Of a stretch of DNA of 32,000 bases, positions 1,093 through 32,000 are shown piece after piece. The stretch is from Opitutales bacterium (GTDB lineage Bacteria > Verrucomicrobiota > Verrucomicrobiia > Opitutales > PNEW01), in assembly GCA_965219535.1 (NCBI GenBank), contig CBDCNV010000002.1, forward strand, positions 1,260,001 to 1,292,000, read 5' to 3'. The first letter of the stretch is position 1. Each line of letters opens with the position of its first letter. A program made the position numbers and the translations under genes. A model generated the notes under the pieces. That model saw nothing but the letters and a program-made list of their open reading frames with translations. It was not told the origin of the DNA and made no database searches.

Positions 1093-1111
1093 TGTATCAA
1101 ACGATGTTTGA

Positions 1112-1138
1112 GTGTTAGGTGTTAAGTTTTAGGTTTTA
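1112..1138. repeat. TTAGGTG/TTAAGTG-type short-period array
   Basis: gtgttaggtgttaagttttaggtttta, directly upstream of the minus-strand start at 1092. Confidence 0.9.
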
Positions 1139-1350
1139 ATTAGATTCTAAATAAAATGGCTATTGTCATTAATAGATTTTATTAATTGTCATTGCGCCTG
1201 CCGGCCATAGCCTTGACGACGGATGAAGAATCATGCAATTGCGGGAGCCGCGGCAATCCAGAAAGTTATAATACCCTTACTCAGAACGATTAACCCTAAG
1301 ATGTAAACCTAACACGGTCTTGTGCGCCTTAGCGTGTCAGTACTCTTCCC

Positions 1351-1381
1351 TTTTGACATTTTGACGTTTTGACCTTTTGAC
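1351..1381 (+). repeat. TTTTGAC octamer array (x4), copy in first duplication unit
   Basis: ttttgacattttgacgttttgaccttttgac. Confidence 0.95.
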
Positions 1382-1396
1382 TAAAGTTAATCGAAA

Positions 1397-1495
1397 ATGA
1401 GCTCTGACGATCAAACCACCTACCCCGATGAAGAGGCGCGCTGCCGATTCTGGACGGAGCATATGGATCGCGGCTACGATGGCTATTGTCATTAA
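1397..1495 (+). pseudogene. duplicated 5' fragment (27 codons plus 5 junction codons) of the M15 peptidase gene
   Basis: Codons 1-27 of CDS 1720-2589 are reproduced exactly in the first copy of the 323-bp tandem duplication. The frame then runs across the duplication junction (GAT GGC TAT TGT CAT TAA) and stops at 1493-1495. Confidence 0.8.
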
Positions 1496-1673
1496 TAGAT
1501 TTTATTAATTGTCATTGCGCCTGCCGGCCATAGCCTTGACGACGGATGAAGAATCATGCAATTGCGGGAGCCGCGGCAATCCAGAAAGTTATAATACCCT
1601 TACTCAGAACGATTAACCCTAAGATGTAAACCTAACACGGTCTTGTGCGCCTTAGCGTGTCAGTACTCTTCCC

Positions 1674-1704
1674 TTTTGACATTTTGACGTTTTGACCTTT
1701 TGAC
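1674..1704 (+). repeat. TTTTGAC octamer array (x4), 15 nt upstream of ATG 1720
   Basis: Identical to 1351-1381 (shifted by 323). Confidence 0.95.
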
Positions 1705-1719
1705 TAAAGTTAATCGAAA

Positions 1720-2589: not shown

Positions 2590-2599
2590 TTAGTTAATT

Positions 2600-2705: not shown

Positions 2706-2707
2706 TA

Positions 2708-5721: not shown

Positions 5722-5749
5722 GACTTTACCTTTTTTGCCGATGGATAAA

Positions 5750-5774
5750 GTCAAAATGTCAAAAAGTCAAAAGG
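5750..5774 (-). repeat. GTCAAAAG octamer array (x3)
   Basis: gtcaaaatgtcaaaaagtcaaaagg. It reads TTTTGAC in the sense of the minus-strand gene that starts at 5721. Confidence 0.95.
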
Positions 5775-5775
5775 G

Positions 5776-5820
5776 ATATGCGTGTATGCGTCAATGCGTG
5801 TATGTGATGATGCGGTAATG
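5776..5820. repeat. ATGCGNNN octamer array
   Basis: atatgcgtgtatgcgtcaatgcgtgtatgtgatgatgcggtaatg. Confidence 0.9.
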
Positions 5821-5830: not shown

Positions 5831-5863
5831 CTTGCATCGTGTATCATGCATCTTGCATCATCC
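5831..5863. repeat. GCATC heptamer array
   Basis: cttgcatcgtgtatcatgcatcttgcatcatcc, with GCATC/GTATC every 7 nt. Confidence 0.9.
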
Positions 5864-7038: not shown

Positions 7039-7129
7039 ACGTTATTTTGTTTGATAGAAGTTTCAGGATTATACCCATTTCCGATTGTAGGATATATCAG
7101 TCACAATGACGAAGGGATGGGTGTTTATA

Positions 7130-7197
7130 CGCGTTCCACCATTGCTTATATAATAATTCTTGTTTCTTACGCTATGCATCGTGGATCACTCCGGCTT
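7130..7197. repeat. ~68-bp 3'-flank module, copy 1
   Basis: cgcgttccaccattgcttatataataattcttgtttcttacgctatgcatcgtggatcactccggctt. It is about 80 percent identical to 17788-17855. Both copies lie just 3' of minus-strand genes. Confidence 0.85.
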
Positions 7198-7358
7198 GGA
7201 AGATGTCGTTCCGCGATTGCGGAACTCGGAACTGGTCTTCCGGCTATTCGGTTTGGAAGATGTCATTCCGCGATTGCGGAACTCGGAACTGGTCTTCCGG
7301 CTATTCGGTTTGGAAGATGTCATTCCGCGATTGCGGAACTCGGAATTGGTAATACGGC
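7189..7358. repeat. 57-bp tandem repeat, ~3 copies
   Basis: Units start at 7198, 7255 and 7312 (ggaagatgtcNttccgcgattgcggaactcggaactggtcttccggctattcggttt). Each unit holds a ttccgc-gatt-gcggaa hairpin. The array overlaps the 3' end of CDS 7301-8149. Confidence 0.95.
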
Positions 7359-8149
7359 GCTGGGTCAAATCCGGGATATCTCTTTACCATTCCCTCGATG
7401 AATAGCTTGGTCCACAGCGGGTCACCGGGCGGCGGGAAACCCAACAGTTCTCGCTGGCGCGGTGTAGCCTCAACCATAAAGCGACACATCGCTTCGTTGC
7501 TGGCGCCGCTTTTATAAGTGAAGGTGCGACCCCCGTCCCAGGGCCGGTCTTTGCGGGAATAACAAACATGCATGACCGGGCGATGGCCTCGATGTGAGGT
7601 GAATTCGGAAGCAGCGTGCCGAGTGAATATACTGTAGAGACAGACTGAGCCGCCAGGTACGATCATCGGCACCGCTTCCTCGTCCGGTCGGCCATTAGGC
7701 ACCATACGGATCGGTGCCAAATCCCGCTCCACATCATCGAAGCAATAGAAAAAGTCCAGGTGCATATAGTCGTCGGGCTCGATGATTGGTCCCAGTGTAT
7801 TATTACTGTAGTCGATGTGAAATTTCGTATTGTATTCCTCGCCAGCGTATTTCATTCCCAGATGGCCTTCGCAGAGGCGGATTTCGCGGGTGCCGAAAAC
7901 GCGCTCAGCCGCATCAACCAGATCCGGATGGACGGTGACGTGATTGAGACCGGAGTGGTCCCAGGGGAAGAGTCGATGTTTCGGCGTATTGTTCTGTCGT
8001 TTTTGAGATTCGAATACGTCGAAAGGCGGGGCGAATAAAGTAAAGATTCCTTGGAGCGCAGCTTCCCGCTCATCTTTAGTCAGGAAGTTTTCGATAATAA
8101 GGAACCCCTGCTTTTTGTAAGTGGCGAGTTCCGCGTCAGTGATGTGCAT
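7301..8149 (-). CDS. phytanoyl-CoA dioxygenase (PhyH) family Fe(II)/2-oxoglutarate oxygenase
   Basis: 282 aa. The N-terminus MHITDAELATYKKQGFLIIENFL is typical of PhyH. It has an H-x-D (HIDYS) motif and a distal His. GAGGAG lies upstream of the ATG. The last ~17 codons and the stop are encoded by the 57-bp tandem repeat. Confidence 0.8.
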   Translation of the reverse strand: MHITDAELATYKKQGFLIIENFLTKDEREAALQGIFTLFAPPFDVFESQKRQNNTPKHRLFPWDHSGLNHVTVHPDLVDAAERVFGTREIRLCEGHLGMKYAGEEYNTKFHIDYSNNTLGPIIEPDDYMHLDFFYCFDDVERDLAPIRMVPNGRPDEEAVPMIVPGGSVCLYSIFTRHAASEFTSHRGHRPVMHVCYSRKDRPWDGGRTFTYKSGASNEAMCRFMVEATPRQRELLGFPPPGDPLWTKLFIEGMVKRYPGFDPAPYYQFRVPQSRNDIFQTE

Positions 8150-8276
8150 AGTCTACTCCTCTACAGTAATATCAAACAATGTAAAATGTTCCTTAATCAT
8201 CGTGTTAATTATTATTAAATGATCTTAGAGGATTTCGAGACGAATCGCATCTGCGATATTAGTTCGCATTATTTTT

Positions 8277-9392
8277 TCAATCAACGCATCTGGAAGCGAT
8301 CATTTTCTCATTGAGTTTAAAACCCAGCCCCGGTCCATCGGGTAAAATCAGGTGACCGTTCTCAATTTTCGTCGGGGGATCGAGCAGCTCGTGCTCCCAC
8401 TCATTCTTCGGTGCGCCGCCGGCATACTCCTGATAGAGGAGATTCGGAGTACGGGCACAAACATGGGTCGCCGCCCGTGTGACGATCGGGCCGCACCAAT
8501 TATGCACGGCGATCTTAACATCAAAGAGCTCGGCAAGATCTCCAGTTTTGGAACTCTCGAGAATACCACCATTGCTTCCCACCTCGGGCTGGAACACCTT
8601 AATTACACCGCTATCGAGAAGTGCCTTAGCATCCCTGCGCGTGGTTGTAAGTTCTCCTGTTGCGAGGGGAATAGAAGTTGCATCAGCAACTTTTCTCAGC
8701 ATTACAGGATCATCTTTGGTAGGCGCTTCGAAGAACAGTATGTTAAGCGGCTCAAGTTCCCTCGCAGCCATGATTGCGCCATCGACACTGAATCGGTTAT
8801 GGGCATCGATAGCCAGCTGGTAATCTTTACCCACCGCTTCCCGGATCTGCTGAACCTTATCGATCTGTTTGCCGAGTTCTTTCACATCGGGCGTTCCCTC
8901 TCCCTCAAAGGGGTCCCATTTGAACAGTGTAAATCCGGCTTCCTTTGCTTTCAATATCCGTTCGACTTGCTCCTCCCAGCTTTCAGCTCCATCGAAAATG
9001 CCATGATCTGCATAGAGAGGAATCTCCTTGTGTACGGATCCCCCCAGCAGGGTGTAGATGGGGAGACCAGCCATCTTGCCGACGATGTCCCATAACGCAA
9101 TTTCAATAGCCGAAATCGCGGCACACCAGTTGCGGTCGGTCGCTTGAGCAAAGAGAAAGCGCTTGAGAAAGGATTCGATCGCCATCGGATTGGCGCCCGT
9201 TATCTTTTGAGCGATCGTCTCGATATGTGACCGGATGGTCGATGCATGACCTCTCCAGGTAAAACCTTCACCGAGTCCCTCAATCCCTTGATCAGTCAGG
9301 ACGCGAACAATAACCCATTCTTCATACCCTCTTGTTGCTTTTATCGAAACCGGAGTTACGAGTTCGATCTTGATTGGATGATGAGCTTTCAA
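8277..9392 (-). CDS. enolase-superfamily enzyme (mandelate racemase/muconate lactonizing, sugar-acid dehydratase-like)
   Basis: 371 aa. It has an N-terminal capping domain (VIVRVLTDQGIEGLGEG) and barrel metal-ligand context (AIDAHNRF, FFEAP, ATGE). The start is TTG just after AAGGAGGG. Confidence 0.85.
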   Translation of the reverse strand: MKAHHPIKIELVTPVSIKATRGYEEWVIVRVLTDQGIEGLGEGFTWRGHASTIRSHIETIAQKITGANPMAIESFLKRFLFAQATDRNWCAAISAIEIALWDIVGKMAGLPIYTLLGGSVHKEIPLYADHGIFDGAESWEEQVERILKAKEAGFTLFKWDPFEGEGTPDVKELGKQIDKVQQIREAVGKDYQLAIDAHNRFSVDGAIMAARELEPLNILFFEAPTKDDPVMLRKVADATSIPLATGELTTTRRDAKALLDSGVIKVFQPEVGSNGGILESSKTGDLAELFDVKIAVHNWCGPIVTRAATHVCARTPNLLYQEYAGGAPKNEWEHELLDPPTKIENGHLILPDGPGLGFKLNEKMIASRCVD

Positions 9393-9458
9393 TTCCCTCC
9401 TTCGTTTAGAACCATCCGGTTAACGCGGCAGATTCCACATTACCGCTTAATCGTTCTT

Positions 9459-9482
9459 CCTTTCGACCTTCGACCTTTGACT
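9459..9482 (+). repeat. TTCGAC/TTTGAC array
   Basis: cctttcgaccttcgacctttgac, between the start at 9392 and the stop at 9489 of two minus-strand genes. Confidence 0.9.
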
Positions 9483-9488
9483 CACCTC

Positions 9489-9809
9489 TCAGGAAATTGG
9501 AATATTGTTCGTCTCACCGTCGTAACCTTCGACGAGGATGGATGAAATAACCGTCGATGCGCTTTTGCGTATCTCAGCTACCGGTTGATACTCAGGCGCA
9601 GCACCAAACTTTTCCATCTGCTCTTTGGATGGAAAATCGATTACGACCAGTCTGTTGGGTTTCCAATCTCCGACTCGGACGGTGATTTCACCCCCGCGAA
9701 TGTGGTAGTGCCCACCATAACTTTCGACGATCGGGCGCGCTTTCTCAACGTATTCCTGGTACTTGTCCCAGTCGTGAACTTTGATATCACTGATAAGGTA
9801 GACTGACAT
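9489..9809 (-). CDS. DUF1330 domain protein
   Basis: 106 aa. MSVYLISDIKVHDWDKYQEY...VVIDFPSKEQ is characteristic of DUF1330. GAGGAG precedes the ATG. Confidence 0.8.
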   Translation of the reverse strand: MSVYLISDIKVHDWDKYQEYVEKARPIVESYGGHYHIRGGEITVRVGDWKPNRLVVIDFPSKEQMEKFGAAPEYQPVAEIRKSASTVISSILVEGYDGETNNIPIS

Positions 9810-9921
9810 TTTTTCTCCTCGTTAATTATTTATAATCTAATGAATTGAAGCTTTAACCCAAAAGCTAAGTTTGCCGAACGTGTGGCGATGACAATCTAAA
9901 AAAGTGAGTGTCCAGACCGCC

Positions 9922-11589: not shown

Positions 11590-11620
11590 TTTTGACCTTT
11601 TGACGTTTTGACATTTTAAC
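11590..11620 (+). repeat. TTTTGAC octamer array (x3-4)
   Basis: tttttgaccttttgacgttttgacattttaac. It is antisense relative to both flanking minus-strand genes. Confidence 0.95.
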
Positions 11621-11625
11621 TACAA

Positions 11626-13596: not shown

Positions 13597-13669
13597 TCTA
13601 TTAGTCCCCTTAATTTATCTGTTTAACTGCCATCTCAAAGAAAAGCTTTTATATGAGGAGGTATAAACA

Positions 13670-14836: not shown

Positions 14837-15049
14837 AGGTACCTCCTTTTTAGGTCAACGCCCTGGCCGTTATTTCAAAGATTGAATAGGTTTCAATAGG
14901 TGTTTCTCACCGGAGAATTCTAGGTAAATATTTTTAAGGATAAAGCCAATATTGAATCCTCAACTCAAGTATGCCAATTCTGAATTCCCTTTAAAAGTTA
15001 AACTTATGTAAGTTCTGTCGTTTCTCTTTTCGATTCACTAGTGACAGTG

Positions 15050-15430: not shown

Positions 15431-15481
15431 AATTATGCTTCTATGATTTTCAATGGATTAGAGTTAGGGTGAAGCACTTTA

Positions 15482-16829: not shown

Positions 16830-16989
16830 TTCGCGATGACAAAGGAAAAAGATTTTTGACCTTCTACCATTCTCATCGTACACACGCATGTTTGAGTATA
16901 CACATATTACTATCCTTTCAGCAGAACGACCTAATTCAGCCCCTGGCTAAGCGGTTGACTAGCTGCTGCGTGTCCTCCCCAATGACTGG

Positions 16990-17547: not shown

Positions 17548-17570
17548 GTCTCAGTTATTACAGCGAGAAT

Positions 17571-17797
17571 GGCAACTCGCTAATATGCGTATACGCGATA
17601 ATGCGTGTATGCGGTCATGCGGAGCATCTAATGGAGGGACAAGTGGTGCCTGTCGGCCATAGCCCAACGGGCGTCGGATGATCGCGTCTGTGAATACGCA
17701 GTAGCGGATTTTTATTTTAGGTGGGGTGGGCTGTCTCAGCACGCTTAATAATTATTCAAATATTACTACAAACGCGCTAGAGACAGCACGTTCCACC
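17571..17797 (+). repeat. composite direct repeat, right copy
   Basis: See the left copy; the offset is 969 bp. Weaker similarity extends upstream to agcaagtct (17543 versus 16562), overlapping the 5' end of ORF 16990-17547. Confidence 0.95.
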
Positions 17798-17855
17798 ATT
17801 GCTTATGTAATTATTTTCGTTTCTTACATCATGCATCGTGTATCAATCCGGCTTT
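17788..17855. repeat. ~68-bp 3'-flank module, copy 2
   Basis: cacgttccaccattgcttatgtaattattttcgtttcttacatcatgcatcgtgtatcaatccggcttt, just 3' of CDS 17880-19601. Confidence 0.85.
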
Positions 17856-17879
17856 CCTGCCTTCTGGATTTCTGGTTTT

Positions 17880-19644: not shown

Positions 19645-19702
19645 GCATATGCGTATACGCATATGCGATAATGCGGTAATGTGTGTATGCGATGATGCGG
19701 TA
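19645..19702. repeat. ATGCG-type array beginning with a 22-bp perfect palindrome
   Basis: gcatatgcgtatacgcatatgc (19645-19666) is a perfect palindrome, followed by gataatgcggtaatgtgtgtatgcgatgatgcggtac. Confidence 0.95.
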
Positions 19703-19821: not shown

Positions 19822-19852
19822 CCCCGAACCCTGAACCCCGAACCCCGAACCC
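19822..19852. repeat. GAACC(C/T) heptamer array
   Basis: ccccgaaccctgaaccccgaaccccgaaccc. It touches the stop codon of CDS 19852-20307. A shorter cctgaaccctg lies at 19729-19740. Confidence 0.95.
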
Positions 19853-20307
19853 TATTTCTTCCCCCTCCTATGCCCGCGGCCGGTTCTCACATAACCGATC
19901 TGTTTGAGTCCCTTACCGTAGATGCGAAAAGCCTTCCCAAATCCGTATACCAGGGTGCCTTCACTCGGTTTCAAAAGAAATAGATCAAAGTCTACTAAGT
20001 TTTTCAGCATCCCGACCTTCTTTTTGAATTTTTTTTCCAAAATCGCAAATGCAGTGTTCCATTTCACACTCTCCCGTTTAATGACACTAACCTTAACCTC
20101 AAGGGTCAGTCGTTTGCGGGCAAAGAGCGTCGCCGCGGTCGATTCATCTTCGATGATCATTAGACTCGCTTTACCCGTAGCCTTGAGGTTGGCGGAGTGG
20201 CGAGCCAGCGCGCTCACATAAATATAGAAATTACATTTCTCATCGATGGCCGCCGGGGCATAACTGGCGTTGGGCTCACCGTATTCATCCACGGTGCTCA
20301 AAATCAC
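19852..20307 (-). CDS. pyridoxamine-5'-phosphate-oxidase-like / HugZ-like FMN-binding split-barrel protein
   Basis: The 151-aa ORF starts at GTG 20307. The frame stays open 28 codons further upstream (to 20391) and encodes a plausible N-terminal helix with no ATG, GTG or TTG. The stop codon abuts the GAACC array. Confidence 0.6.
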   Translation of the reverse strand: MILSTVDEYGEPNASYAPAAIDEKCNFYIYVSALARHSANLKATGKASLMIIEDESTAATLFARKRLTLEVKVSVIKRESVKWNTAFAILEKKFKKKVGMLKNLVDFDLFLLKPSEGTLVYGFGKAFRIYGKGLKQIGYVRTGRGHRRGKK

Positions 20308-20382
20308 TGTTTTGAAATGATTTAGCAGACTATCTCGCTCTCTCGCTGCCTCCTTAAATTCTTCTTCTGTTTTGATCGAATA

Positions 20383-20415
20383 GTCAAAAGGTCAAAAAGT
20401 CAAAAGGTCAAAAGG
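20383..20415 (-). repeat. GTCAAAAG octamer array (x4)
   Basis: gtcaaaaggtcaaaaagtcaaaaggtcaaaagg. It reads TTTTGAC in the sense of the PNPOx-like gene and overlaps the open upstream frame of that gene. Confidence 0.95.
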
Positions 20416-20416
20416 A

Positions 20417-20463
20417 AATGCGTAAATGCGATTATGCGAATAAGCGAAGATGCGGTAATGCGT
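20417..20463. repeat. ATGCGNNN octamer array
   Basis: aatgcgtaaatgcgattatgcgaataagcgaagatgcggtaatgcgt. Confidence 0.9.
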
Positions 20464-20486
20464 ACCGAGGGTGAACCCCGACATCC
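20462..20486 (+). repeat. 25-bp direct repeat, copy 1
   Basis: gtaccgagggtgaaccccgacatcc, 23/25 identical to 20767-20791. Confidence 0.9.
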
Positions 20487-20546
20487 TAATATATGGTATT
20501 GAAGAAATGGCTAGTAATCATATGTATCATACATCGTGATTATTTT

Positions 20547-20741
20547 CTTGTCATTGCGAAGGAGGCGAAGCCGACTGCGGCTACCGAGCGCCGCGACATC
20601 TTCCATTTCCAGGCGACTGACGATACGCTGTCCTATGTTCTCCTGGAATGGAAGATGTCGGACTACGTCCTCGGTAGCCACGACTGACAAGCAACCTTCC
20701 CCCGTCGCACGAGGCTATGGAGGACAGGCGCGATGACAAAG
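20547..20741. repeat. GTCATTGCG / CGCGATGACAAAG-bounded palindromic element (~195 bp)
   Basis: The termini cttgtcattgcg and cgcgatgacaaag are inverted. The inner arms ctaccgagcgccgcgacatcttccatttccagg (20581-20612) and cctggaatggaagatgtcggactacgtcctcggtag (20642-20677) are also inverted. Confidence 0.9.
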
Positions 20742-20766
20742 GGAATCTATCGATAATCTGCTATAT

Positions 20767-20791
20767 GTACCGAGGGCGAAGCCCGACATCC
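20767..20791 (+). repeat. 25-bp direct repeat, copy 2
   Basis: gtaccgagggcgaagcccgacatcc. Confidence 0.9.
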
Positions 20792-20846
20792 CTCAATCGA
20801 AAATCTTGCATCCAGGATTCTGCAAATATTATAGACGGTAATTAGT

Positions 20847-22115: not shown

Positions 22116-22121
22116 TCGGCT
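22101..22121 (+). terminator. stop-codon-spanning hairpin (weak terminator candidate)
   Basis: agccgat-ttaactg-atcggct has a 7-bp stem, and its loop contains the TGA of CDS 20847-22115. No T-run follows; a GTCAAAAG array follows instead. Confidence 0.3.
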
Positions 22122-22123
22122 TA

Positions 22124-22155
22124 GTCAAAAGGTCAAAAAGTCAAAAGGTCAAAAG
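22124..22155 (-). repeat. GTCAAAAG octamer array (x4)
   Basis: gtcaaaaggtcaaaaagtcaaaaggtcaaaag, immediately 3' of the plus-strand DadA-like gene. Confidence 0.95.
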
Positions 22156-22192
22156 GGGAGGAGCGCTGACGCGATAATACGAAGTATCTTCT

Positions 22193-22344
22193 GGAGGGAC
22201 GCGTGGAGCCTGTCGGCCATAGCCTAACGGGCGTCGGGTGATCGCGTCCGTGAACATGCCTTGTGTAAAGTTCTCCATTTACGGCTACGACGGAGCGTGA
22301 CCTTACATACCTTCGGACTATGGCCGATAGACGCGATGACAAAG
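22193..22344. repeat. composite palindromic element (GGAGGGAC hairpin + CCTGTCGGCCATAGCC arm ... GGACTATGGCCGATAG arm + CGCGATGACAAAG terminus)
   Basis: 22193-22255 is homologous to 16664-16726 and 17633-17695. cctgtcggccatagcc (22209-22224) is inverted relative to ggactatggccgatag (22315-22330). The element is followed by ccgaattccgcaatcggaaatcggaaattg (22354-22383). Confidence 0.9.
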
Positions 22345-22386
22345 AGTATCAATCCGAATTCCGCAATCGGAAATCGGAAATTGTCA

Positions 22387-23346: not shown

Positions 23347-23355
23347 GGGCAACTA

Positions 23356-23388
23356 GTCAAAAAGTCAAAAGGTCAAAAAGTCAAAAGG
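23356..23388 (-). repeat. GTCAAAAG octamer array (x4)
   Basis: gtcaaaaagtcaaaaggtcaaaaagtcaaaagg. It reads TTTTGAC in the sense of the gluconolactonase-like gene and lies 9 nt from its ATG. Confidence 0.95.
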
Positions 23389-23392
23389 TTTT

Positions 23393-23427
23393 GGGTTCAG
23401 AGGTTCACGGTTCAAGGTTCAGCGGTT
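23393..23427. repeat. GGTTC (reverse GAACC) heptamer array
   Basis: gggttcagaggttcacggttcaaggttcagcggtt. Confidence 0.95.
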
Positions 23428-23499
23428 GAGTGTATGATATCGGTATACTTTAGAATTAATTGTACCGGGGCTATGCTTGTCTTCCTGAATGTACTTAAT

Positions 23500-23529
23500 G
23501 GAGGGACGCGTTCCGTCGCGTCCGTGTAT
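23500..23529 (+). repeat. short form of the GGAGGGAC hairpin
   Basis: ggagggacgcg-ttccgt-cgcgtccgtgtat has the same stem as 22193-22255 but a 6-nt loop in place of the 39-nt insert. Confidence 0.9.
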
Positions 23530-23571
23530 TTCCTGGTATAATCTTACACATTCACGACCATTATCAGTCGT

Positions 23572-23609
23572 CGCCCGGTGGGCTATGACCGACAGGCACT
23601 GCGTGGCCC
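23572..23609 (-). repeat. reverse-oriented CCTGTCGG(C/T)CATAGCC module
   Basis: cgcccggtgggctatgaccgacaggcactgcgtggccc is the reverse complement of the module found inside the long GGAGGGAC hairpins. Confidence 0.85.
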
Positions 23610-23651
23610 TAAGAATTACTTGTATCTTGCACCCTGCATCTCGCGTCCTCT

Positions 23652-23763
23652 ATTGTCATTGCGAAGGAGGCGATGCCGACTGCGGCAATCCAGGGGGGCT
23701 GATATTACACTTCCGACATTCCCCTGGATCGCCACGGCTGACAGCAGCCTCGCGATGACAAAT
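23652..23763. repeat. GTCATTGCG / CGCGATGACAAA-bounded palindromic element (~112 bp)
   Basis: attgtcattgcgaagg is inverted relative to cctcgcgatgacaaat. The inner ggcaatccagggg is inverted relative to cccctggatcgcc. Confidence 0.9.
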
Positions 23764-23834
23764 TATATCAGACAACATATTAATACATTCGATGTATCTA
23801 GAAATAAGATATAGACATACGAGGAGAAGCGGAA

Positions 23835-24913: not shown

Positions 24914-24948
24914 CTTCGACTTTCGACTTTCGACCTTTGACCTTCGAC
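24914..24948 (+). repeat. TTCGAC/TTTGAC array (x5)
   Basis: cttcgactttcgactttcgacctttgaccttcgac, 13 nt upstream of the RidA ATG. Confidence 0.95.
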
Positions 24949-24961
24949 TATCTATTCCCCT

Positions 24962-25349: not shown

Positions 25350-25425
25350 GGTGGAACGCGCTGTCCCCTAGCGCGTTTCAAAATGTCATAAGGGAAGAAG
25401 CGTGCTAGGGACAGCCCGCTCCACC
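25350..25425 (-). repeat. GGTGGA...TCCACC long hairpin, inverted orientation relative to 16751-16829
   Basis: The right arm cgtgctagggacagcccgctccacc is the exact reverse complement of 16751-16775. The left arm is ggtggaacgcgctgtcccctagcgcg. The element lies between convergent genes and is followed by a reverse TTAGG array (25431-25460). Confidence 0.95.
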
Positions 25426-25482
25426 GCTTACCCTAACACTTAACACTTAAAACTTAACACTGATCGATAAATCACCAATCAC

Positions 25483-27702
25483 TTAAAACGTTACTTCTTC
25501 AAAGTTAAGGGTGATCGTTTCTCCAACCTCGTTTTCGAAGGTAGCAGCAACGCTCTGTGTCGGTTGGGGCGTGTTGTCGGATTTGAAGTTGTTCTGCGAA
25601 ATCAAGGTCTCAATTCCGGATGTCGTCGAATCACTCTCCGCGACGACGACTGCGGCCCCGTTCGTCTGCAACAAATCTCCTCCCGTGATCCTCACCCCGG
25701 GGTTGCCGGCTGGCACAGTGAAAGAGCCTTCTCCAAACAAAAGGTACGGAACTGCATCCCCACTGGCATCGATGTCGCCTAAGGTTAAGCGAACCGCGAT
25801 CGGTACCCCGCGCGCGTCGACACCGGTCTTGCCGGTGCTTCCACTGAAGACGGTGTTCGATAACTGCACTCCTCCCATTCCTGTGGAATTAACGACTTCT
25901 ACGAGGGCCACGTCCGCTTGTGCGTCATAGACCTGTCCCTCGGGGAAGAGGGCCTGGTTAAACGCGTTGATCCTGCCCACGGTGAAGATACTGAAGAAGG
26001 TATTGGCATCCGCGCCGTCGATGACGACGCTCGGCTTGCCCGTCACGTACTCAACGGCCTGGTTGTAGCGTGGTGGGATGGCCGGGGGCAGGAAGGTAGC
26101 TGGGTCCAGGGTTACGGTAAAGGTACCATTACCTGAAAACTCTACCTGCACAATATCCTCGTTTTCGTCCATGAAGGAGACGCGTGTGATCTGTCCCGGT
26201 TTGGCCTGGAGTTGGACGGACTCTCCGGTAAGTAAAATCTGGTCGAAGACGTTACCGTTGGCATGCTGAATGTTTTCCCCGGCGATATCGCCCGAGCCGT
26301 CAAGCACGAGAGGGATAGCCGCGGCTGCGATCGTAATAACCGCAGTATCGCTGTCCGCGGTTCCTCCAGCGTTAGTAATCTGTACCCAAAAGCTTGTGCT
26401 CGCGGTGAGCGCGCCCGTGTCTAACGTGCCGCTGGTAGCGCCGGCGACGGGACTGGCGGTGTCGCCGCTGTTGCCGGTAAACCACTGGTAAGTGAGATCG
26501 TCACCACTGGCGGTAACGGACAAGCTGGCTGAAGCGCCCGAAGCGACCTCCTGGCTCGCGGGCTGGGTAGTGATGGACGGGGCATCCGCGGGTGGGGGTC
26601 CTTCGGAGCCCGTGCCCGGTGCTCCGATGGGCGTAAACCCAAAATCGTCAACTGCAGTACGACTGAAAAGAGCGTTTATATCCGGGTCATCTTTCATCAC
26701 AAGTCTGCTAATGCCGCCCGGGGCTCCCAATTCATCCGCATTAATCGTTATGAAACTAGGTTTGAATTCAGGGGTAATATCCCCCTCTAAATTCCTTAAG
26801 GTAACAAGCAAGTTATCGTTCGTATCATAGACTTCGATTGAGCCGTCAGGATCGGAGGTACTTGATGTCACCACTGCGGCTCCAAAAAGATCAATTTCAT
26901 AAGCTGGCGTTTCAAAAGTGATGGTCGCTTCTTCTCCATTAAATATTGCATAAGAATGAGGGAACGAGCGTACTTGTTCGAAGGCACCTGAGACAAATAC
27001 GATAGACCCCCCTTCAAAAGTAGCCGTATTAGGCGACGTCCCAATGACTAAGGGCTCAGATAATCCATCCCCTACGCCAAATTCACTAAAAGTGCTGTAA
27101 ACCGTGTTGTTCGAGGGAAATTCCGTCAGGGTGAACCCCAAGTCGTCGAGGACGAGTTTTCCGGTTACATTAAAAATCTTCACTTCTATAATGCCGCTGA
27201 TGAAATTAAAATCATCTTCATCCTGGAAAAATCCGCTGTCGGCGACAAAGCTGTATAAGGGGGGATTTGCGCCGGGACTGATATTTGAAGGCAGCCCATC
27301 CACAACACCATCGTCACCTATTACCGTTATCGCCATACGACCTGGGCCCGCTAAATTTGATTCATTGATTATTCCCCTGAACTCCATCCTGCCAGCGCCC
27401 GTTGTTTCTCCAGCATAAAATTCGATAAATTGAATACCTCTTTCCGAGATGATCTTTCCCTCCTGTCCGGGCCCGAGGGTTATCGCTTTTGTTCCTGAAT
27501 GTAAAAGCGCGGGATCCTCTAATGTCTCAATCGTGAAGCCGACCAGCTTAATCCGATTGGGCTCTTCACCGATAAAAAATTCACCTTCACCGCTGATGTC
27601 TTCAAAATCTGTGAATACCTCCAGGTCTTGAGGCAGGGCGATAAGAAGAATCGGGTTTAAAATTGAGAGTAAAACGAGCGTAAGTGCATTTTTAAAAAAC
27701 AT
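25483..27702 (-). CDS. large secreted/surface protein with Ig-like domain
   Basis: 739 aa. It has an N-terminal signal (MFFKNALTLVLLSILNPILLIALP). A central ITTQPASQEV...LTYQWF...TADSDTAVITI segment is Ig (I-set)-like. The composition is Gly/Thr/Ser-rich. The internal plus-strand ORFs are shadows. Confidence 0.7.
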   Translation of the reverse strand: MFFKNALTLVLLSILNPILLIALPQDLEVFTDFEDISGEGEFFIGEEPNRIKLVGFTIETLEDPALLHSGTKAITLGPGQEGKIISERGIQFIEFYAGETTGAGRMEFRGIINESNLAGPGRMAITVIGDDGVVDGLPSNISPGANPPLYSFVADSGFFQDEDDFNFISGIIEVKIFNVTGKLVLDDLGFTLTEFPSNNTVYSTFSEFGVGDGLSEPLVIGTSPNTATFEGGSIVFVSGAFEQVRSFPHSYAIFNGEEATITFETPAYEIDLFGAAVVTSSTSDPDGSIEVYDTNDNLLVTLRNLEGDITPEFKPSFITINADELGAPGGISRLVMKDDPDINALFSRTAVDDFGFTPIGAPGTGSEGPPPADAPSITTQPASQEVASGASASLSVTASGDDLTYQWFTGNSGDTASPVAGATSGTLDTGALTASTSFWVQITNAGGTADSDTAVITIAAAAIPLVLDGSGDIAGENIQHANGNVFDQILLTGESVQLQAKPGQITRVSFMDENEDIVQVEFSGNGTFTVTLDPATFLPPAIPPRYNQAVEYVTGKPSVVIDGADANTFFSIFTVGRINAFNQALFPEGQVYDAQADVALVEVVNSTGMGGVQLSNTVFSGSTGKTGVDARGVPIAVRLTLGDIDASGDAVPYLLFGEGSFTVPAGNPGVRITGGDLLQTNGAAVVVAESDSTTSGIETLISQNNFKSDNTPQPTQSVAATFENEVGETITLNFEEVTF

Positions 27703-27714
27703 GGCTATCTTTGA

Positions 27715-27750
27715 TATGTATTGATGGGGGGAGATGTATTGATGGGGGGA
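27715..27750. repeat. 18-bp tandem repeat x2 just upstream of the secreted-protein gene
   Basis: (t/g)atgtattgatgggggga occurs twice. On the coding strand it reads tccccccatcaatacat x2 and ends 12 nt before ATG 27702. Confidence 0.9.
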
Positions 27751-28003
27751 ACAATCTCATTAGAGAAGGTGACTAGGTCAAATCTAAAACCTAATATTCA
27801 ATTATATGTAAAAAACCTAATTTACGTAACATATGTGATTTACTAGTAAAGAATGAGCTTACACCTTGATCTAAGTTTACTTGGTGGCTCTCTATTACTA
27901 TTAAATAACTTGACGCTATTATAGTCCCGCTCGAGTATTTTAAAACTGTCGCACCTGCCATACCAATGGTTGTAAACCTGTGTATCTTTCAACGAATTGA
28001 GCA

Positions 28004-28873: not shown

Positions 28874-28876
28874 GAA

Positions 28877-28926
28877 ATATGCGATAACGCGTGTAAGCGA
28901 AAACGAGTAGATGCGGACTTGCGTCC
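28877..28926. repeat. degenerate ATGCG-type array
   Basis: atatgcgataacgcgtgtaagcgaaaacgagtagatgcggacttgcgtcc. Confidence 0.8.
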
Positions 28927-28993
28927 CTCTATCATTGCAAGTGCAGCTATTAAAGGCACAGCCTGACATCTTTCATTTTAGGAAGTTCAAAAA

Positions 28994-29016
28994 CCGTGAA
29001 CCCAGAACGGTGAACC
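28994..29016. repeat. GAACC heptamer array
   Basis: ccgtgaacccagaacggtgaacc, between convergent genes. Confidence 0.85.
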
Positions 29017-29033
29017 TTCCCCCCTAACGGGCT

Positions 29034-31595
29034 TTATTTTTTATTGCGATTGAGCGTGTAGAGGGTGAGTCCTTCTAAGGGTTTTTCTTTATCCGGAATA
29101 ATGAGGCTGACAATATACCCTACGCTTAAGCATAAAAAGAATCCAATTATGGTGTAGAGGAAAAAGTGAATCGGCGTGTGGTATTTAATAAAGTAGAGGA
29201 ACAATGCGCTGGCGATGGCACCAATTAATGCTCCGATTCCTTTCGCCCGTCGCGTAAATATGCCGAGGGCAAAGAGACCGGCCAATCCACTGCTGAATAA
29301 ACCGACAATGGCAGCAGAAAATAAGGTAGCAGACTTAATGTCAAAGCTAACCATAATAAGGGCGATTGCCGTGGCAAAGATACCGCTGAGCAGGGTAATC
29401 CTGCGGGCGAGAATAAAATAGGAATGTTCAGACTTGTCGGGTATAAAGCGTCGGTAAATATCAGTGACAAAAACAGTCGAGATCGAATTCATCCCGCTAT
29501 CTAAACTGGACATCGCGGCAGAAAAAATAGCCGCTATAAGAAACCCAGCAAGTCCGATAGGAATGTTCTGTGCAACATAGAGCGGAAAAATCGCATCGTT
29601 CTGCATCCCGAGGTTTATACCCGTAGGATGCGTTTTATAATAAGCGTAAAGAGATGATCCCATAACATAAAATACAATGGCCGTCGGAATACCGATTATC
29701 GCATTTAACCATAATCCTTTAGCGGCTGATTTTTCGTCCTTCGTGGTTAAAAATCTTTGGATCCTAGCCTGGTCGGAAGTTAAAACCACAATCGTCCTGA
29801 AAACACCTCCCAAAACGACGACCCATATAGTCGGTGCGGTAAAATCCCAGTCCAGGTAAAGCATACGAAATTTATCGTTAGCCATACCGACATCGACAAC
29901 ACCCATGACACCGCCATCGACATGTAATGTGACCGTAATGATAGCGACAAAAATTCCGGTAAAGAAAATAATGACTTGTAACACATCCGACCAGATGACC
30001 GCTTCAATCCCTCCCAGTGCCGTGTAAAAAGTGCTGAGTAGCCCCATGGACAGTATGCACACATAAATATTAATCCCCGTAATCGTGGAGAGAACAATTG
30101 CTGGCAGGTACAAGATGAGGCTGATCCTAATCATTTGAAAGATGATAAACTGGAGGCTGCCAAATAAGCGGACTGCGACATTAAAGCGTAATTCCAGGTA
30201 CTCATAGACGGTCGTAATGTTTAATCTTCGGAAAAAAGGCAGATAGAAATAGATAATAATTATCGGTACGATGAAGGCTCCAATTGTAGCGGGAAACATG
30301 AACCAGTCCGTGGCATAAAGTAACGCTGGAGTGGCGATATAAGTCAGGGCACTGAGCCCGGTCCCCAGCATACTGATCGCCGCGGCCCACCAGGGAATAC
30401 GGCGGCCAGCTAGAAAATAATCGTCGGTTCCCTTTTCTCGTCTGGAGAAATAAAGCCCCATAAAGACAAGGATCGACAGATAGAAAATAAGAAAAGTGTA
30501 ATTAACGACACCGAAGGAAGCTTTTGCACCCGATTCATGCTTCATAAATTGAATTCTGGGTGTGTTTTCGCCGGAACTGAGCTCACCACTGACGAGCAGA
30601 AATCCTCCCTTCCATGGCACAGCCTCGGCATTTGCCACCGCGCGGGGAATTTCTCCTTTGACGAGCCAGGTGTCAGTAATCGTGTGATAGGCGAGCAGAT
30701 CGTGCGATTGTTTGAGTTTTTCATTTTCCCCAATATGTCTACCGCCAAAAATTATAATATGTGATTGGCCATAATTAATAACCGGAGCTGCAGTAATGGG
30801 GTGAGGGGTGTCAGCGATCCTTTCCCATATTTTTTGTCGAAGTGAATAACGATAGCCGTCGGTCAGCGACTGTGTTTGAAGATCACCTTCCTCGTGCTGG
30901 GTAATCCCTTCACCGCCTAAAAGATAAACATAACTCTTATCTCCCGTGTTTTGTCTGACCACTTTGGCATTTGTCCGGGCCGGACCATCCCAGGGGTCTA
31001 AACTATTCCACCCCGCCTCCAAATTAAGGAGATTGAGCGACCAGAATATTTTTGATAGCTCTGATTCTTCGGCTTCAACTTTTCCCCCTGCAACAAACAG
31101 CGTATCGCTGACAAGTGTGGCGTCGATGAATGAGACGGGATGTAGGAGAGGTGGCAGAGATTCCTGCTCTATCATCTGTGATTCGGTATTCCAGGTTAAT
31201 CGTGTCACCTGGTCTTGATTGCCATCTGCGTTTCTTCCACCAATCAGTATTAAACTGTTATCACTGATTACCGATGCACCATAAGCGAGTGGTGCCTTTA
31301 ATTTATATCCCTCTAGCCACTCATCCTGCTCATCATTGACGAGAACATAGATATCGTCGTACCAGGCAATTTTATCACTTTTCCATTTGGTGATATCAAA
31401 GGAGTCAGCGCCACCGGCGACAATCAGCGCGCCGTTGCTGACACCCGCGAATGCGCCACTCAAGCCAGATGGACGGGGCAGTTCGGGGAGTTCTTTCCAG
31501 GTGAAAGCTTCTTCCCTCTGGGACTCAACATTACTGCAACCACTAAAAAACAGGAGAGCCGCAATATAGGATGCAATGATCTGAGAACATTTCAT
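29034..31595 (-). CDS. lipoprotein-anchored Kelch/NanM-like beta-propeller fused to a sodium:solute symporter (SSS) domain
   Basis: 853 aa. It has a lipobox-like signal (LLFFSGC). Six hydrophobic-GG blades follow (LIVAGG, LILIGG, LFVAGG, YLLGG, IIFGG, LLVSG), then ~500 aa of multi-pass membrane domain with an SSS-like layout. Confidence 0.85.
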   Translation of the reverse strand: MKCSQIIASYIAALLFFSGCSNVESQREEAFTWKELPELPRPSGLSGAFAGVSNGALIVAGGADSFDITKWKSDKIAWYDDIYVLVNDEQDEWLEGYKLKAPLAYGASVISDNSLILIGGRNADGNQDQVTRLTWNTESQMIEQESLPPLLHPVSFIDATLVSDTLFVAGGKVEAEESELSKIFWSLNLLNLEAGWNSLDPWDGPARTNAKVVRQNTGDKSYVYLLGGEGITQHEEGDLQTQSLTDGYRYSLRQKIWERIADTPHPITAAPVINYGQSHIIIFGGRHIGENEKLKQSHDLLAYHTITDTWLVKGEIPRAVANAEAVPWKGGFLLVSGELSSGENTPRIQFMKHESGAKASFGVVNYTFLIFYLSILVFMGLYFSRREKGTDDYFLAGRRIPWWAAAISMLGTGLSALTYIATPALLYATDWFMFPATIGAFIVPIIIIYFYLPFFRRLNITTVYEYLELRFNVAVRLFGSLQFIIFQMIRISLILYLPAIVLSTITGINIYVCILSMGLLSTFYTALGGIEAVIWSDVLQVIIFFTGIFVAIITVTLHVDGGVMGVVDVGMANDKFRMLYLDWDFTAPTIWVVVLGGVFRTIVVLTSDQARIQRFLTTKDEKSAAKGLWLNAIIGIPTAIVFYVMGSSLYAYYKTHPTGINLGMQNDAIFPLYVAQNIPIGLAGFLIAAIFSAAMSSLDSGMNSISTVFVTDIYRRFIPDKSEHSYFILARRITLLSGIFATAIALIMVSFDIKSATLFSAAIVGLFSSGLAGLFALGIFTRRAKGIGALIGAIASALFLYFIKYHTPIHFFLYTIIGFFLCLSVGYIVSLIIPDKEKPLEGLTLYTLNRNKK

Positions 31596-31604
31596 TTTAT
31601 AATT

Positions 31605-31645
31605 GTATACGCGATTAAGCGTGAACGCGGGTATGCGGAATTAAG
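31605..31645. repeat. degenerate ATGCG-type array
   Basis: gtatacgcgattaagcgtgaacgcgggtatgcggaattaag, upstream of the symporter-fusion gene. Confidence 0.8.
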
Positions 31646-31682
31646 AGTAGAATGTCAAAAGACATTTCTATGACATTGTGCA

Positions 31683-31710
31683 GGTGAAACGCGGTCGACT
31701 CCGCCTCCAC
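31683..31710. repeat. miniature GGTGRA...CCAC hairpin
   Basis: ggtgaaacgcgg-tcgact-ccgcctccac keeps the outer arms of the GGTGGA hairpin family without the interior. Confidence 0.6.
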
Positions 31711-31711
31711 T

Positions 31712-31956
31712 CTTGTCATTGCGAGGGAGGTATTCAACCGATCGTGGCAATCCAGGCGAATAATCATTGTACTTACGAATACTTAGTCTACACTAAGATC
31801 TTTCCAATGAGGTTCATCTCCTCAATCAAGTTAATTGTTTAATTGAGAGTAAGCCCTAACATCCAGAGACCTGCATCACTCAACTGACATCCTCCTGGAA
31901 TGTAAGATGTCGCTACGCTCGGTAGCCGCGTCGCGTTGCTCCTCGCAATGACAAAC
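31712..31956. repeat. GTCATTGCGAGG / CCTCGCAATGAC-bounded palindromic element (~245 bp)
   Basis: The termini are a perfect 12-bp inverted pair (31715-31726 and 31941-31952). The element contains ggcaatccagg and cctggaatgtaagatgtcgctacgctcggtagcc, as element 20547-20741 does. Confidence 0.9.
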
Positions 31957-31977
31957 GAAGGGAATCGCTGGTGCGCG

Positions 31978-32000
31978 TTTTAAGTGTTAGGTGTTAAGCA
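31978..32000. repeat. TTAAGTG/TTAGGTG array, cut by the window edge
   Basis: ttttaagtgttaggtgttaagca. Confidence 0.85.

Follow-up and report, generated by a model that had tools for sequence, protein, structure and literature searches.

What are the short repeats that recur throughout the intergenic DNA of an Opitutales bacterium, and how are they gained, lost and kept? In this study we analysed a stretch of 32,000 nucleotides from this uncultured, low-GC marine organism (contig CBDCNV010000002.1, positions 1,260,001 to 1,292,000), referred to here as the window. The window has a G+C content of 48% and about 25 genes, mostly for catabolic enzymes and transporters, including PhyH dioxygenases, a GH67-like hydrolase, enolase-superfamily enzymes and an SSF transporter fused to Kelch repeats; there is no tRNA gene in it, and non-coding DNA accounts for 17.6% of its length. 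An earlier description made from the letters alone (the sequence-only reading) had sorted the contents of the spacers into five families of tandem arrays (families 1 to 5), three families of hairpins (families 6 to 8) and a GGAAGATGTC core.

We propose, with moderate confidence, that these repeats form two layers: hairpin elements of the repetitive extragenic palindromic (REP) type, which would be young, mobile and largely selfish, and short tandem modules, which would be older and conserved in position. The first layer would comprise GTGG-tagged REP doublets (family 7), doublets with TGTC tags on the outside (family 8), a small hairpin that we call REP-B and a 29-nt unit that we call the box. 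Such elements would travel in the form of single-stranded DNA hairpins, and the cutting and pasting would be done in trans by a HUH/Y1 transposase of the REP-associated tyrosine transposase (RAYT) type, encoded by a single-copy gene elsewhere in the genome. They would insert into the loops and arms of each other and into tandem arrays, and because they nest, mosaics like the bacterial interspersed mosaic elements (BIMEs) would result. The second layer would be made of the 7- and 8-bp modules at gene boundaries, which would change by gain or loss of single units and serve as preferred landing pads for the first.

Repeat density and comparison DNA

Tandem Repeats Finder (TRF) detected about 25 distinct arrays of period 7 or 8 (or 14 or 16) in the window, 23 of which lie in non-coding DNA. 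A strict test, in which at least three in-phase cores were required and 100 Markov shuffles served as background, returned 21 arrays, 21 of them non-coding, against 0-0.02 expected per family. TTTTGAC (seven arrays) and ATGCG (six) recur with period 8, and TTAGG/TTAAG (three), TTCGAC (two), GAACC (two) and GCATC (one) with period 7. An unbiased autocorrelation scan of the window gave 11 strong arrays, again all non-coding and with periods of 7 or 8 only, no array of period 5, 6, 9, 10 or 11, and close to none in shuffled DNA. Dispersed repeats at the level of BLAST cover 19% of non-coding bases, compared with 0.3% of coding bases.

All five array families of the sequence-only reading were recovered, although family 4 (GCATC) is weak, with its one strict array, and heptamers of the types TTCGACY (9462-9482, 24915-24949) and AATCGGA (22365-22381) had been missed. 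The GGAAGATGTC core and the hairpins of families 6 to 8 likewise lie where it had placed them. Its wording that most spacers longer than 45 bp consist of, or are built from, modules was too strong: 17 of 23 such spacers hold at least one module, and dispersed repeats make up the 19% given above. Six spacers are essentially free of modules (8150-8276, 9810-9921, 13597-13669, 14837-15049, 15431-15481 and 27703-28003). Its figure of at least 50 module instances is about right only if partial copies and both copies of a 323-bp duplication (see below) are counted, our tally of listed features being about 40-50.

For comparison we used several further sources. Loci L001 and L130 belong to one 116-kb ENA metagenome contig which is 99.97-100% identical to the window and represents the same strain. 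Close relatives with megabase contigs have a FAD oxidoreductase 95, 94, 90 and 82% identical to that of the window, the next homologues being at most 62% identical; L122 and L124 are loci of the closer relatives and L125 is that of the 82% relative. Scanning a genome collection with the 16-mer CCTGYCGGCCATAGCC, for which the matches listed were mostly due to chance, provided L061, L048, L087, L089, L101 and L011 and, as a by-product, about 0.8 Mb of control DNA. L061 is an Opitutales contig which encodes a protein 82% identical to the product of window gene 25483-27702 and carries the palindromic element of the window.

The repeat vocabulary extends into the 8.6 kb that precede the window and recurs at syntenic positions in the relatives of 94% and 90% identity, in L061 and in 26 metagenome contigs from JGI, the latter having been retrieved with the box. 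Arrays of period 7 or 8 occur at a density of 38-39 per 100 kb in the window strain, L122 and L124, and of 27 per 100 kb, with the same unit types, in independent low-GC metagenome contigs of the Planctomycetes-Verrucomicrobia-Chlamydiae (PVC) group, compared with 1.8 per 100 kb in 821 kb of DNA from unrelated prokaryotes and 0 per 100 kb, at the same threshold, in L125. Since the spacers of L125 measure 25-114 bp where those of the window measure 250-540 bp, and hold only degenerate A-rich traces of the octamer module, the repeat expansion seems to be confined to a sub-clade. A family of proteins of about 400 residues, which has no Pfam or NCBIfam match, is represented at window positions 1-1092 and at L130:1644-2843 and 8503-9696; two paralogues with 74% DNA identity lie within 8 kb.

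REP-type hairpins and the 29-nt box

Coordinates refer to the window unless a locus is named, and the strand (+ or -) is given where one applies. The arm of family 7 reads GGTGG + AACGCGC + TGTCCCCTA + GCGCGTT and thus has a GTGG tag and a stem of 7 bp around a loop of 9 nt; two inverted arms give a hairpin of 75-80 nt. One doublet (25350-25425, folding z -5.3) is followed by (TTAAGTG)4 on the - strand (25430-25461), the whole feature spanning 25350-25461. A second doublet, GGTGGAGCGGGCTGTCCC…GTTCCACC (16751-16829, z -6.4), is followed by the remnant of a CGCGATGACAA terminus (together 16751-16842, +).

The palindromes of family 8, bounded by GTCATTGCG…CGCAATGAC, are 105-240 nt long and end in perfect or near-perfect inverted repeats of 11-14 nt, TTGTCATTGCG(AGG) / (CCT)CGCAATGACAA. 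Their arm reads TGTC-ATTGCGAGG…GCAAT-CCAGG, the tags facing outwards; every terminus has TGTC before ATTGCG, and single arms also stand alone. In the long palindrome at 20548-20745 (+, z -5.0) the TGTC-ATTGCG… outer arms enclose a pair of REP-B sequences (GACATCTTCC / GGAAGATGTC), and the right arm holds a remnant of the box (20713-20728). A short palindrome of 111 nt (23653-23763, +, z -5.6) lies within an open reading frame (ORF) discussed below, and a third (31713-31954, +) has perfect 14-nt termini, TTGTCATTGCGAGG / CCTCGCAATGACAA, between which lie an inner REP-B (31902-31929) and some 130 nt of unrelated sequence. A half palindrome near the left end (1186-1275, +; second copy 1509-1598) has a TTGTCATTGCG terminus, the box (1197-1225) and a part ending in …GCGGCAATCCAG. 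A uniform strand orientation of family 8 was considered and rejected, the copy at L124:13673 being inverted in its arm types relative to that at 31715.

REP-B is a small TGTC-tagged hairpin that holds the GGAAGATGTC core (consensus GGAAGATGTC-GGGC-TAC-GCCC-TCGGTAC) and has a 4-bp stem, a 3-nt loop and a TCG tail. It stands alone, forms the inner pair of long palindromes and, in a different form, is part of each unit of a 57-bp tandem repeat. Ten copies were counted in roughly 130 kb of DNA from the lineage (window, L130, L122, L124, L125 and L061), compared with none in 886 kb of control DNA; two copies in the window lie at 20462-20489 (-, consensus GGAAGATGTCGGGCTACGCCCTCGGTAC) and 20767-20794. 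The 57-bp repeat, with 2.8-3 copies according to TRF (7192-7362, +), overlaps with its last copy the 3' end of gene 7301-8149, and its unit contains the TGTC-tagged REP hairpin GATGTC-(A/G)TTCCGC-GATT-GCGGAAC.

The insert that the sequence-only reading had described for family 6 is real, but it is not peculiar to that family: it is the same discrete 29-nt unit, CCTGYCGGCCATAGCCTYGGCGACGGCTG, as the subterminal box of family 8. This box begins with the 16 nt CCTGTCGGCCATAGCC, and with identical limits it was found in six contexts, on contigs with G+C contents of 40-67%: in the loop of the family-6 hairpin (L152; diverged in the window), in the arm loop of family 7 (two copies in L130, compared with the uninterrupted window arm at 25350), in the arm of family 8 (L061 and window 20713), in the loop of GTAG-tagged REPs of high-GC Opitutia (L101 and L159), inside CTCTTGTG arrays (L141 and L150) and inside GTCCTAT arrays of a planctomycete (L011). 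Family-7 arms, family-8 arms, family-6 loops and GTAG-REP loops that are otherwise identical occur with and without it. The base 5' of the box is nearly always G, and the flank most often ends in (C/T)TG. The box ranges over PVC genomes; in a Planctomycetaceae metagenome-assembled genome (MAG) a copy with four mismatches sits inside the GTCCTAT heptamer array (L011:100-180), so both the box and its habit of inserting into heptamer arrays reach beyond the Verrucomicrobia. Against plasmids, BLAST gave chance-level matches in coding DNA only. The first 16 nt of the box (for example 16680-16695) resemble the beginning of bacterial 5S rRNA at about 14 of 16 positions; in Rfam there was no match to 5S, and we treat this likeness as a coincidence.

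Family-6 hairpins with a box are found at 16664-16723 (+; GGAGGGAC…GTCTGTG, with a diverged box at 16680-16708) and at 22193-22252 (+; box at 22209-22237), and one without a box, GGAGGGACGCG-TTCCGT-CGCGTCCGTG, at 23500-23526 (+). A separate box lies at 23572-23599 (-), and a box remnant with a CGCGATGACAAA terminus (22316-22342) is followed by (AATCGGA)2.4, the whole spanning 22316-22381. The array (ATGCGNNN)n at 16614-16655 (+), the family-6 hairpin at 16664-16723 and the family-7 feature extending to 16842 together make up a composite of about 280 bp, which is repeated with 83% identity at 17519-17797; in this second composite (17583-17797, +) an ATGCG array (17583-17624), a family-6 hairpin with box (17633-17692) and a family-7 doublet (17720-17797) follow one another.

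Two predicted ORFs, 23489-23758 (89 aa) and 7051-7401 (116 aa), have no family match, are made of repeat elements and are probably spurious. It follows for the first of them that 23347-23834 is a single spacer of 488 bp. The spacer of 627 bp (1093-1719) is inflated by the 323-bp duplication. Repeats of this kind lead both to spurious ORF predictions and to differences between assemblies.

The palindrome arm in other phyla

The sequence-only reading had mentioned a GTCATTGCGAG…GCAATC palindrome as occurring in unrelated phyla, and this was borne out by plasmids of Alpha- and Gammaproteobacteria and Cyanobacteria. With the consensus arm of family 8 as the query against a plasmid collection, matches of 86-97% over 32-36 nt were obtained in Methylosinus, Methylocystis, Novosphingobium (11 in one record), Legionella lytica, Halomonas and four cyanobacterial genera, all of them in unannotated DNA. 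The copies of Methylosinus, Novosphingobium and Halomonas are palindromes of 80-90 nt with the ends (C/T)GTCATTGCGAGG…CTCGCAATGAC(G/A), as in the window, and an inner GCAATCCAGG/CCTGGATTGC is common to those of Methylosinus and Novosphingobium. The tag is CGTC in Methylosinus, Novosphingobium and Legionella and TGTC in Halomonas. Just upstream of the window, L130:5382-5419 is identical at 38 of 38 nt to the Methylosinus plasmid copy. The 126-nt palindrome of the window itself gave no BLAST match in the plasmids, and literature searches with strings of the palindrome returned nothing relevant; a related motif, CTTGTCCGCCGTAGCTTCGGCGAAGGCGGA, also had no BLAST match in the plasmids and was dropped.

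An alignment of 12 copies from four phyla predicts one long hairpin, the terminal 13 bp of which are invariant in sequence rather than covarying, and this points to recognition by a protein rather than to selection for RNA structure alone. The 38-nt identity between a verrucomicrobial arm and that of an alphaproteobacterial plasmid, together with the constancy of the box over a 27-point range of G+C content, argues for a strong, sequence-specific constraint.

Turnover between relatives and assemblies

When orthologous spacers were compared, the relatives at 90-94% identity differed by the presence or absence of whole elements. Spacer 22116-22386 has 271 bp in the window, 37 bp in L122, 125 bp with other modules in L124 and 25 bp in L125. 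Spacer 20308-20846 has 539 bp in the window, 472 bp in L122, 227 bp in L124 and 114 bp in L125; its palindrome is found at a different position in L122 and is not found in L124 or L125. A filled and an empty site could be paired in one case, in which L122 has a REP-B inside a GAACC array and the window has none at about 29000, within the ATGCG-type octamers (28877-28925) and GAACC heptamers (28995-29020) of the feature at 28877-29020 (+). A second REP-B lies inside a GGGTTCA array (L130:2887), and a GCATC array that runs unbroken in L122 is interrupted in the window by the composite at 20548-20800. Because copies of REP-B and of the composite are found inside arrays, the arrays appear to act as landing sites.

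The arrays themselves hold orthologous positions and vary in the number of their units. The GAACC array next to gene 19852-20307 has about four units in the window, about seven in L122 and about two in L124. In the TTCGACY array at 24915 there are five units in the window and six in the other assembly of the same strain. Over 32 kb the two assemblies of this strain differ within repeats only, by one heptamer unit, one single-nucleotide polymorphism and the 323-bp duplication. The latter is a perfect tandem duplication in two copies (1156-1801, +), which comprises the half palindrome with its box, (TTTTGACN)4 and the first 82 nt of a peptidase gene; it doubles the modules of spacer 1093-1719, is not present in the ENA assembly and is either a genuine polymorphism of the strain or a mistake in the assembly. 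It creates a second ATG context at 1397, and GGCTA at both copy ends (1158-1162 and 1472-1476) may mark a microhomology junction.

Two further loci vary between the relatives. The slot between an alcohol dehydrogenase (ADH) gene and a thiamine pyrophosphate (TPP)-enzyme gene holds, in the window (16517-17879), one DUF6932 gene flanked by the composites of about 280 bp (16550-16829 and 17519-17797, 83% identical), in L122 (6692-6857) a 166-bp spacer without a gene and in L124 (2511-5721) three other genes. All of the inserted genes have similar leaders of about 60 nt in front of them (…CCAACAGG…GAGAAAGGCAAC.CGCTAATATGCG), and the slot looks like a cassette-like hot spot or the product of recombination between repeats. 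Where the window has the family-7 hairpin at 25350, a half palindrome, three tandem copies of a repeat of about 100 bp and two REP-B follow one another in L122:14131-14460. With several complete long-read genomes at 82-95% protein identity and with elements that are present or absent, nested and inserted in arrays, this lineage offers a good natural system for studying the targets and enzymes of such elements.

Tandem arrays and the start-proximal octamer module

The (TTTTGACN) arrays are of a fixed length: all 25 non-redundant copies have three or four units, and none has more. Seventeen of the 25 lie exclusively in sense orientation before an ORF of at least 100 codons, at a median distance of 12-13 nt, and none is exclusively antisense (p=1.5e-5); in the independent metagenome contigs alone, the ratio of sense to antisense is 12 to 0 (p=5e-4). 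They are kept at orthologous sites in relatives as distant as that at 82%. An orthologue of equal length in L125 establishes where the peptidase gene starts, and the (TTTTGACN)4 copy at 1674-1705 (the other copy being at 1351-1382, +) therefore ends 14 nt, or 15 nt by the end of the in-phase chain, upstream of a genuine start codon, ATG 1720. In the window (TTTTGACN)3 abuts the start of the GH67-like gene (5749-5772, -), and (TTTTGACN)4 on the - strand ends about 8 nt before ATG 23346, with (GGTTCAN)n at 23394-23427 behind it (feature 23355-23427). Two window copies of (TTTTGACN)4 are not in sense orientation before a start codon, one at 11590-11621 (+) and one in a convergent spacer at 22123-22156 (-).

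The CGCAT octamers show the same bias in orientation, 9 to 1, and lie farther upstream; at 5749-5816 and 20382-20465 the order is CGCAT array, TTTTGAC module, start codon. At the first of these sites the octamer array (ATGCGNNN)n occupies 5776-5816 (+) and (GCATCNN)4 follows at 5831-5861 (+); at the second, (TTTTGACN)4 on the - strand (20382-20413) is followed by (ATGCGNNN)6 (20418-20465). Further arrays of this type are (ATGCGNNN)n at 19645-19702 (+), the first part of which is the perfect palindrome GCATATGCGTATACGCATATGC, and ATGCG-type octamers at 31599-31647 (+), which are separated by 4-14 nt from the start of gene 29034-31595 (by 14 nt if the strict chain at 31609 is taken). GGTTC heptamers are found preferentially behind stop codons, in sense orientation, and (GAACCCY)4 at 19822-19853 (+) abuts the stop codon of gene 19852-20307. 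Among the other heptamers, (TTCGACY)5 at 24915-24949 (+), which has six units in L122 as in the ENA assembly, is situated 12 nt upstream of ATG 24962, and (TTCGACY)3 lies at 9462-9482 (+). A TTAGGTG/TTAAGTG-type array (1111-1139, +) was detected by TRF and as an in-phase chain, and (TTAAGTG)n runs into the window end (31980-32000, +). Inverted heptamer arrays, GTGTTAG… / …CTAACAC, form a hairpin (2599-2674, z -3.6) and are followed by GCGCAT-type octamers (2675-2707). An 18-bp direct repeat, ATGTATTGATGGGGGGAG, which occurs in two copies just upstream of an Ig_7 gene start (27716-27750) and as a diverged single version in L122, is unrelated to the other modules. We found no description of such arrays for Verrucomicrobia.

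We consider it most likely that (TTTTGACN)3-4 acts in the 5' untranslated region (UTR), where it could be a U-rich, unstructured element for initiation independent of a Shine-Dalgarno (SD) sequence or a binding site for an oligomeric protein or regulator. Such a role is preferred over that of a promoter because promoter matches are not enriched and the distance to the start codon leaves too little room for a -10 box and a leader. If it is correct, the octamer module would be a simple, testable example of initiation in bacteria with few SD sites.

These observations raise the question of whether the modules in general are cis-regulatory sites of the host, that is, 5'-UTR enhancers, regulator-binding arrays, terminators or mRNA stabilisers kept by selection. 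As an explanation of the whole vocabulary this is possible, and we regard it as doubtful. The (TTTTGACN)3-4 and CGCAT arrays, with their strict sense orientation, fixed length and fixed distance from the start codon, would be expected of such sites, as would arrays at orthologous positions in relatives down to 82% protein identity, the GGTTC arrays after stop codons, a slight enrichment of terminator-like sites (27, compared with 18.3 expected) and the invariance across phyla of the palindrome ends. The hairpins, however, come and go between relatives at 90-94% identity, shift within one spacer and nest, all of which is unexpected for sites that are required; the 82% relative manages with short spacers and almost no modules, and canonical promoters are not enriched. 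A regulatory role is thus plausible for the arrays and unlikely for the hairpins, and to this extent it complements the reading in two layers.

Other explanations for the hairpins

For the palindromes of family 8 another origin has to be considered, namely that they are classical miniature inverted-repeat transposable elements (MITEs), deletion derivatives of insertion sequences (ISs) of the DDE type with TTGTCATTGCG terminal inverted repeats, mobilised by the transposase of such an IS. Terminal repeats of 11-14 nt that are perfect or nearly so, lengths of 105-240 nt and insertions that are polymorphic are all typical of MITEs. We nevertheless find this origin improbable: neither a target-site duplication nor, in 310 kb, a full-length partner was seen, single arms occur alone, and the arms have the frame of tag and tail that is known from CGTC-type REPs and recur as short palindromes of 80 nt in distant phyla with no IS nearby.

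A further reading, in which the hairpins would encode small structured RNAs or make up a family resembling riboswitches, appears very improbable. The folds are stable and the alignment contains seven pairs with at least one double change; the covariation term, however, is about zero, the conserved stem being invariant and not covarying, and copies are found in all types of spacer, nested and truncated. In Rfam neither the hairpins nor the window gave a match at the gathering threshold, and at E<=1 there was a single snoRNA match, attributable to chance.

An origin of the repeats in assembly or chimera artefacts, for which the absence of the 323-bp duplication from the other assembly of the same strain might be quoted, is refuted for the vocabulary as a whole, and so is the notion that the modules are confined to this contig and would vanish on re-assembly, given that they occupy the same places in the independent ENA assembly and are found in at least three related genomes, one NCBI MAG and the 26 JGI metagenome contigs.

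The mobilising enzyme and points against the two-layer reading

A candidate for an enzyme of the type proposed was found in L151, a related metagenome contig of 58% G+C that carries the box. Here a 183-aa ORF with the HUH and tyrosine motifs of RAYTs is flanked by inverted GTGG-tagged REPs, GGTGGGGCGAGACTC(C/T)GTCGAGCCCTGA repeats. Homologues of its product carry the name 'REP-associated tyrosine transposase' or 'putative transposase'; the two that have been named at NCBI come from Verrucomicrobiae MAGs. The locus (L151:3400-4300) is situated between two FtsX-type permease genes, and AAATCCG/AAACCCG heptamers lie immediately upstream of the RAYT-like gene. A weak RAYT-like tblastn match beside the box in L048 was also followed up, and the ORFs there are not RAYT-like. 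We predict that a RAYT gene is present in the source genome.

Several results weigh against the reading in two layers. The first group concerns the enzyme. As the sequence-only reading had noted, no transposase, integrase or RAYT-like gene is visible in the window, none of its genes having a transposase, integrase or Y1 (HUH-type tyrosine) domain according to Pfam and NCBIfam; no transposase was found in the approximately 310 kb of lineage and PVC DNA that was scanned for termini, and in these 310 kb no gene lies between two palindrome termini that are spaced 0.06-4 kb from each other. The RAYT-like protein of L151 is not recognized by Pfam, and none of its best 120 homologues is encoded on contigs of this lineage. 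For REPs of the CGTC type, Di Nocera 2013 (PMC3733652) found no dedicated transposase.

The second group concerns the elements. No target-site duplication is visible in the flanks of family 8, and filled and empty spacers are too diverged to be aligned, having been replaced wholesale. The arm of family 8 has a closing stem of 5-6 bp, ATTGC(G)/(C)GCAAT, around about 18-20 nt, and in this it departs from the stem and loop of the CGTC superfamily. All three hairpin families had been taken as structured; this holds for families 7 and 8, with folding z of -5.0 to -6.4 against shuffles, but not for family 6, which folds no better than shuffles (z -1.5). The third group concerns the arrays. Sites resembling sigma-70 promoters number 19, compared with 25.8 expected, and only one array matches, on which grounds the arrays were rejected as sigma-70 promoters. 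An SD motif precedes none of nine array-led genes and 11 of 53 other genes, which is the direction expected if arrays replaced SD sites, a possibility set aside since the difference is not significant.

Comparison with known systems

Few parts of bacterial genomes are as poorly understood as REP repeats, and the families of the CGTC type lack a known mobilising enzyme. The sequence-only reading could not assign its modules to a named family. The structured ones do fit described groups, the superfamilies of GTAG/GTGG-tagged and CGTC/TGTC-tagged REPs (PMC3733652). Of the outcome that the sequence-only reading had named as refuting it, a match to a described repeat family of known function, only the first half applies.

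Members of the CGTC superfamily have a CGTC tag (often TGTC or CCTC), an 8-9-bp stem starting A-T, a loop of 4-5 nt and a tail that is mostly CCA; they occur mostly as inverted doublets with the tags outside ('HH' dimers), include dRS3 of Neisseria and RPE-4 and RPE-6 of Rickettsia, and were not reported for Verrucomicrobia or Cyanobacteria (PMC3733652). Family 8 resembles them in its unpaired outer TGTC tag, in a stem that starts with AT (ATTGC…), in the CCA tail (…GCAAT-CCA-GG) of the copies in the window, Methylosinus, Novosphingobium and Legionella, and in that all full copies are inverted doublets with tags outside; no associated transposase was seen here either. In the 57-bp unit and in REP-B, too, the stem has TGTC in front of it. 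The 57-bp unit is near-canonical, with TGTC, a 7-bp stem and a 4-nt loop, but for its CTC tail, whereas REP-B differs in its short stem and loop as well as in its TCG tail.

Opitutus terrae, which belongs to the same order, is highly rich in GTAG-tagged REPs, and most of its GTAG-20 units carry GTGG (PMC3733652). Doublets of REPs that form long hairpins are known as REPINs (Bertels & Rainey 2011, PMC3116915). Family 7 is similar in its GTGG tag, 7-bp stem and 9-nt loop and in the long hairpin formed by its inverted arms, and the likeness to the O. terrae families is one of tag and description; the RAYT-like gene of L151 is likewise flanked by GTGG REPs. In contrast to these systems, no RAYT was found for the present genome, and the loops here serve as targets of the 29-nt element.

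The arrangement had been likened to the BIMEs of E. coli, and a dense mosaic drawn from a small repeat vocabulary is indeed what we found. As in E. coli, where BIMEs combine REPs of the types Y and Z with fixed linker motifs and are typed by their binding of IHF or gyrase, several types of REP occur in spacers in varying order and orientation, and the likeness is organisational only: the sequences are unrelated, as judged by eye against the E. coli REP consensus; the density is much higher; and the present elements nest and stand beside 7-8-bp arrays that E. coli lacks.

Four features appear to be new: the occurrence of the CGTC-like palindrome in Verrucomicrobia and Cyanobacteria as well, its arms being nearly identical between phyla; the 29-nt unit that nests in other repeats; the use of arrays as insertion targets; and the octamer module of fixed length close to start codons. 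We suggest tentatively, well aware that the odds are against it, that two of them are new in kind, the octamer module being a dedicated SD-independent initiation or regulator-binding module of a marine Opitutales clade and the box an ultra-small mobile unit, too short for the usual ends of a transposon, which would insert after (C/T)TG into hairpin loops, repeat arms and tandem arrays and have the arrays as landing pads.

For the arrays, the nearest parallel is with the short tandemly repeated repetitive (STRR) sequences, intergenic tandem heptamers of heterocystous cyanobacteria (CCCCAGT, TTGGTCA and CAACAGT). STRR heptamers and small dispersed repeats (SDR) of cyanobacteria were reportedly described by Mazel in 1990 and Elhai in 2008. 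Both systems have a few families of intergenic tandem heptamers, and in both, dispersed units of 20-30 nt lie inside repeats, hairpins and heptamer arrays. The host, here an Opitutales bacterium, and the units differ, and half of the present arrays have a period of 8; to our knowledge, a fixed length of three or four units and a fixed position before start codons have not been reported for STRRs. The arrays are thus an analogue of the STRRs and not a member of them, and the window as a whole is best described as a dense REP/BIME-like mosaic in a REP-rich order, accompanied by STRR-like arrays, in which the structured modules fall within superfamilies that have been described.

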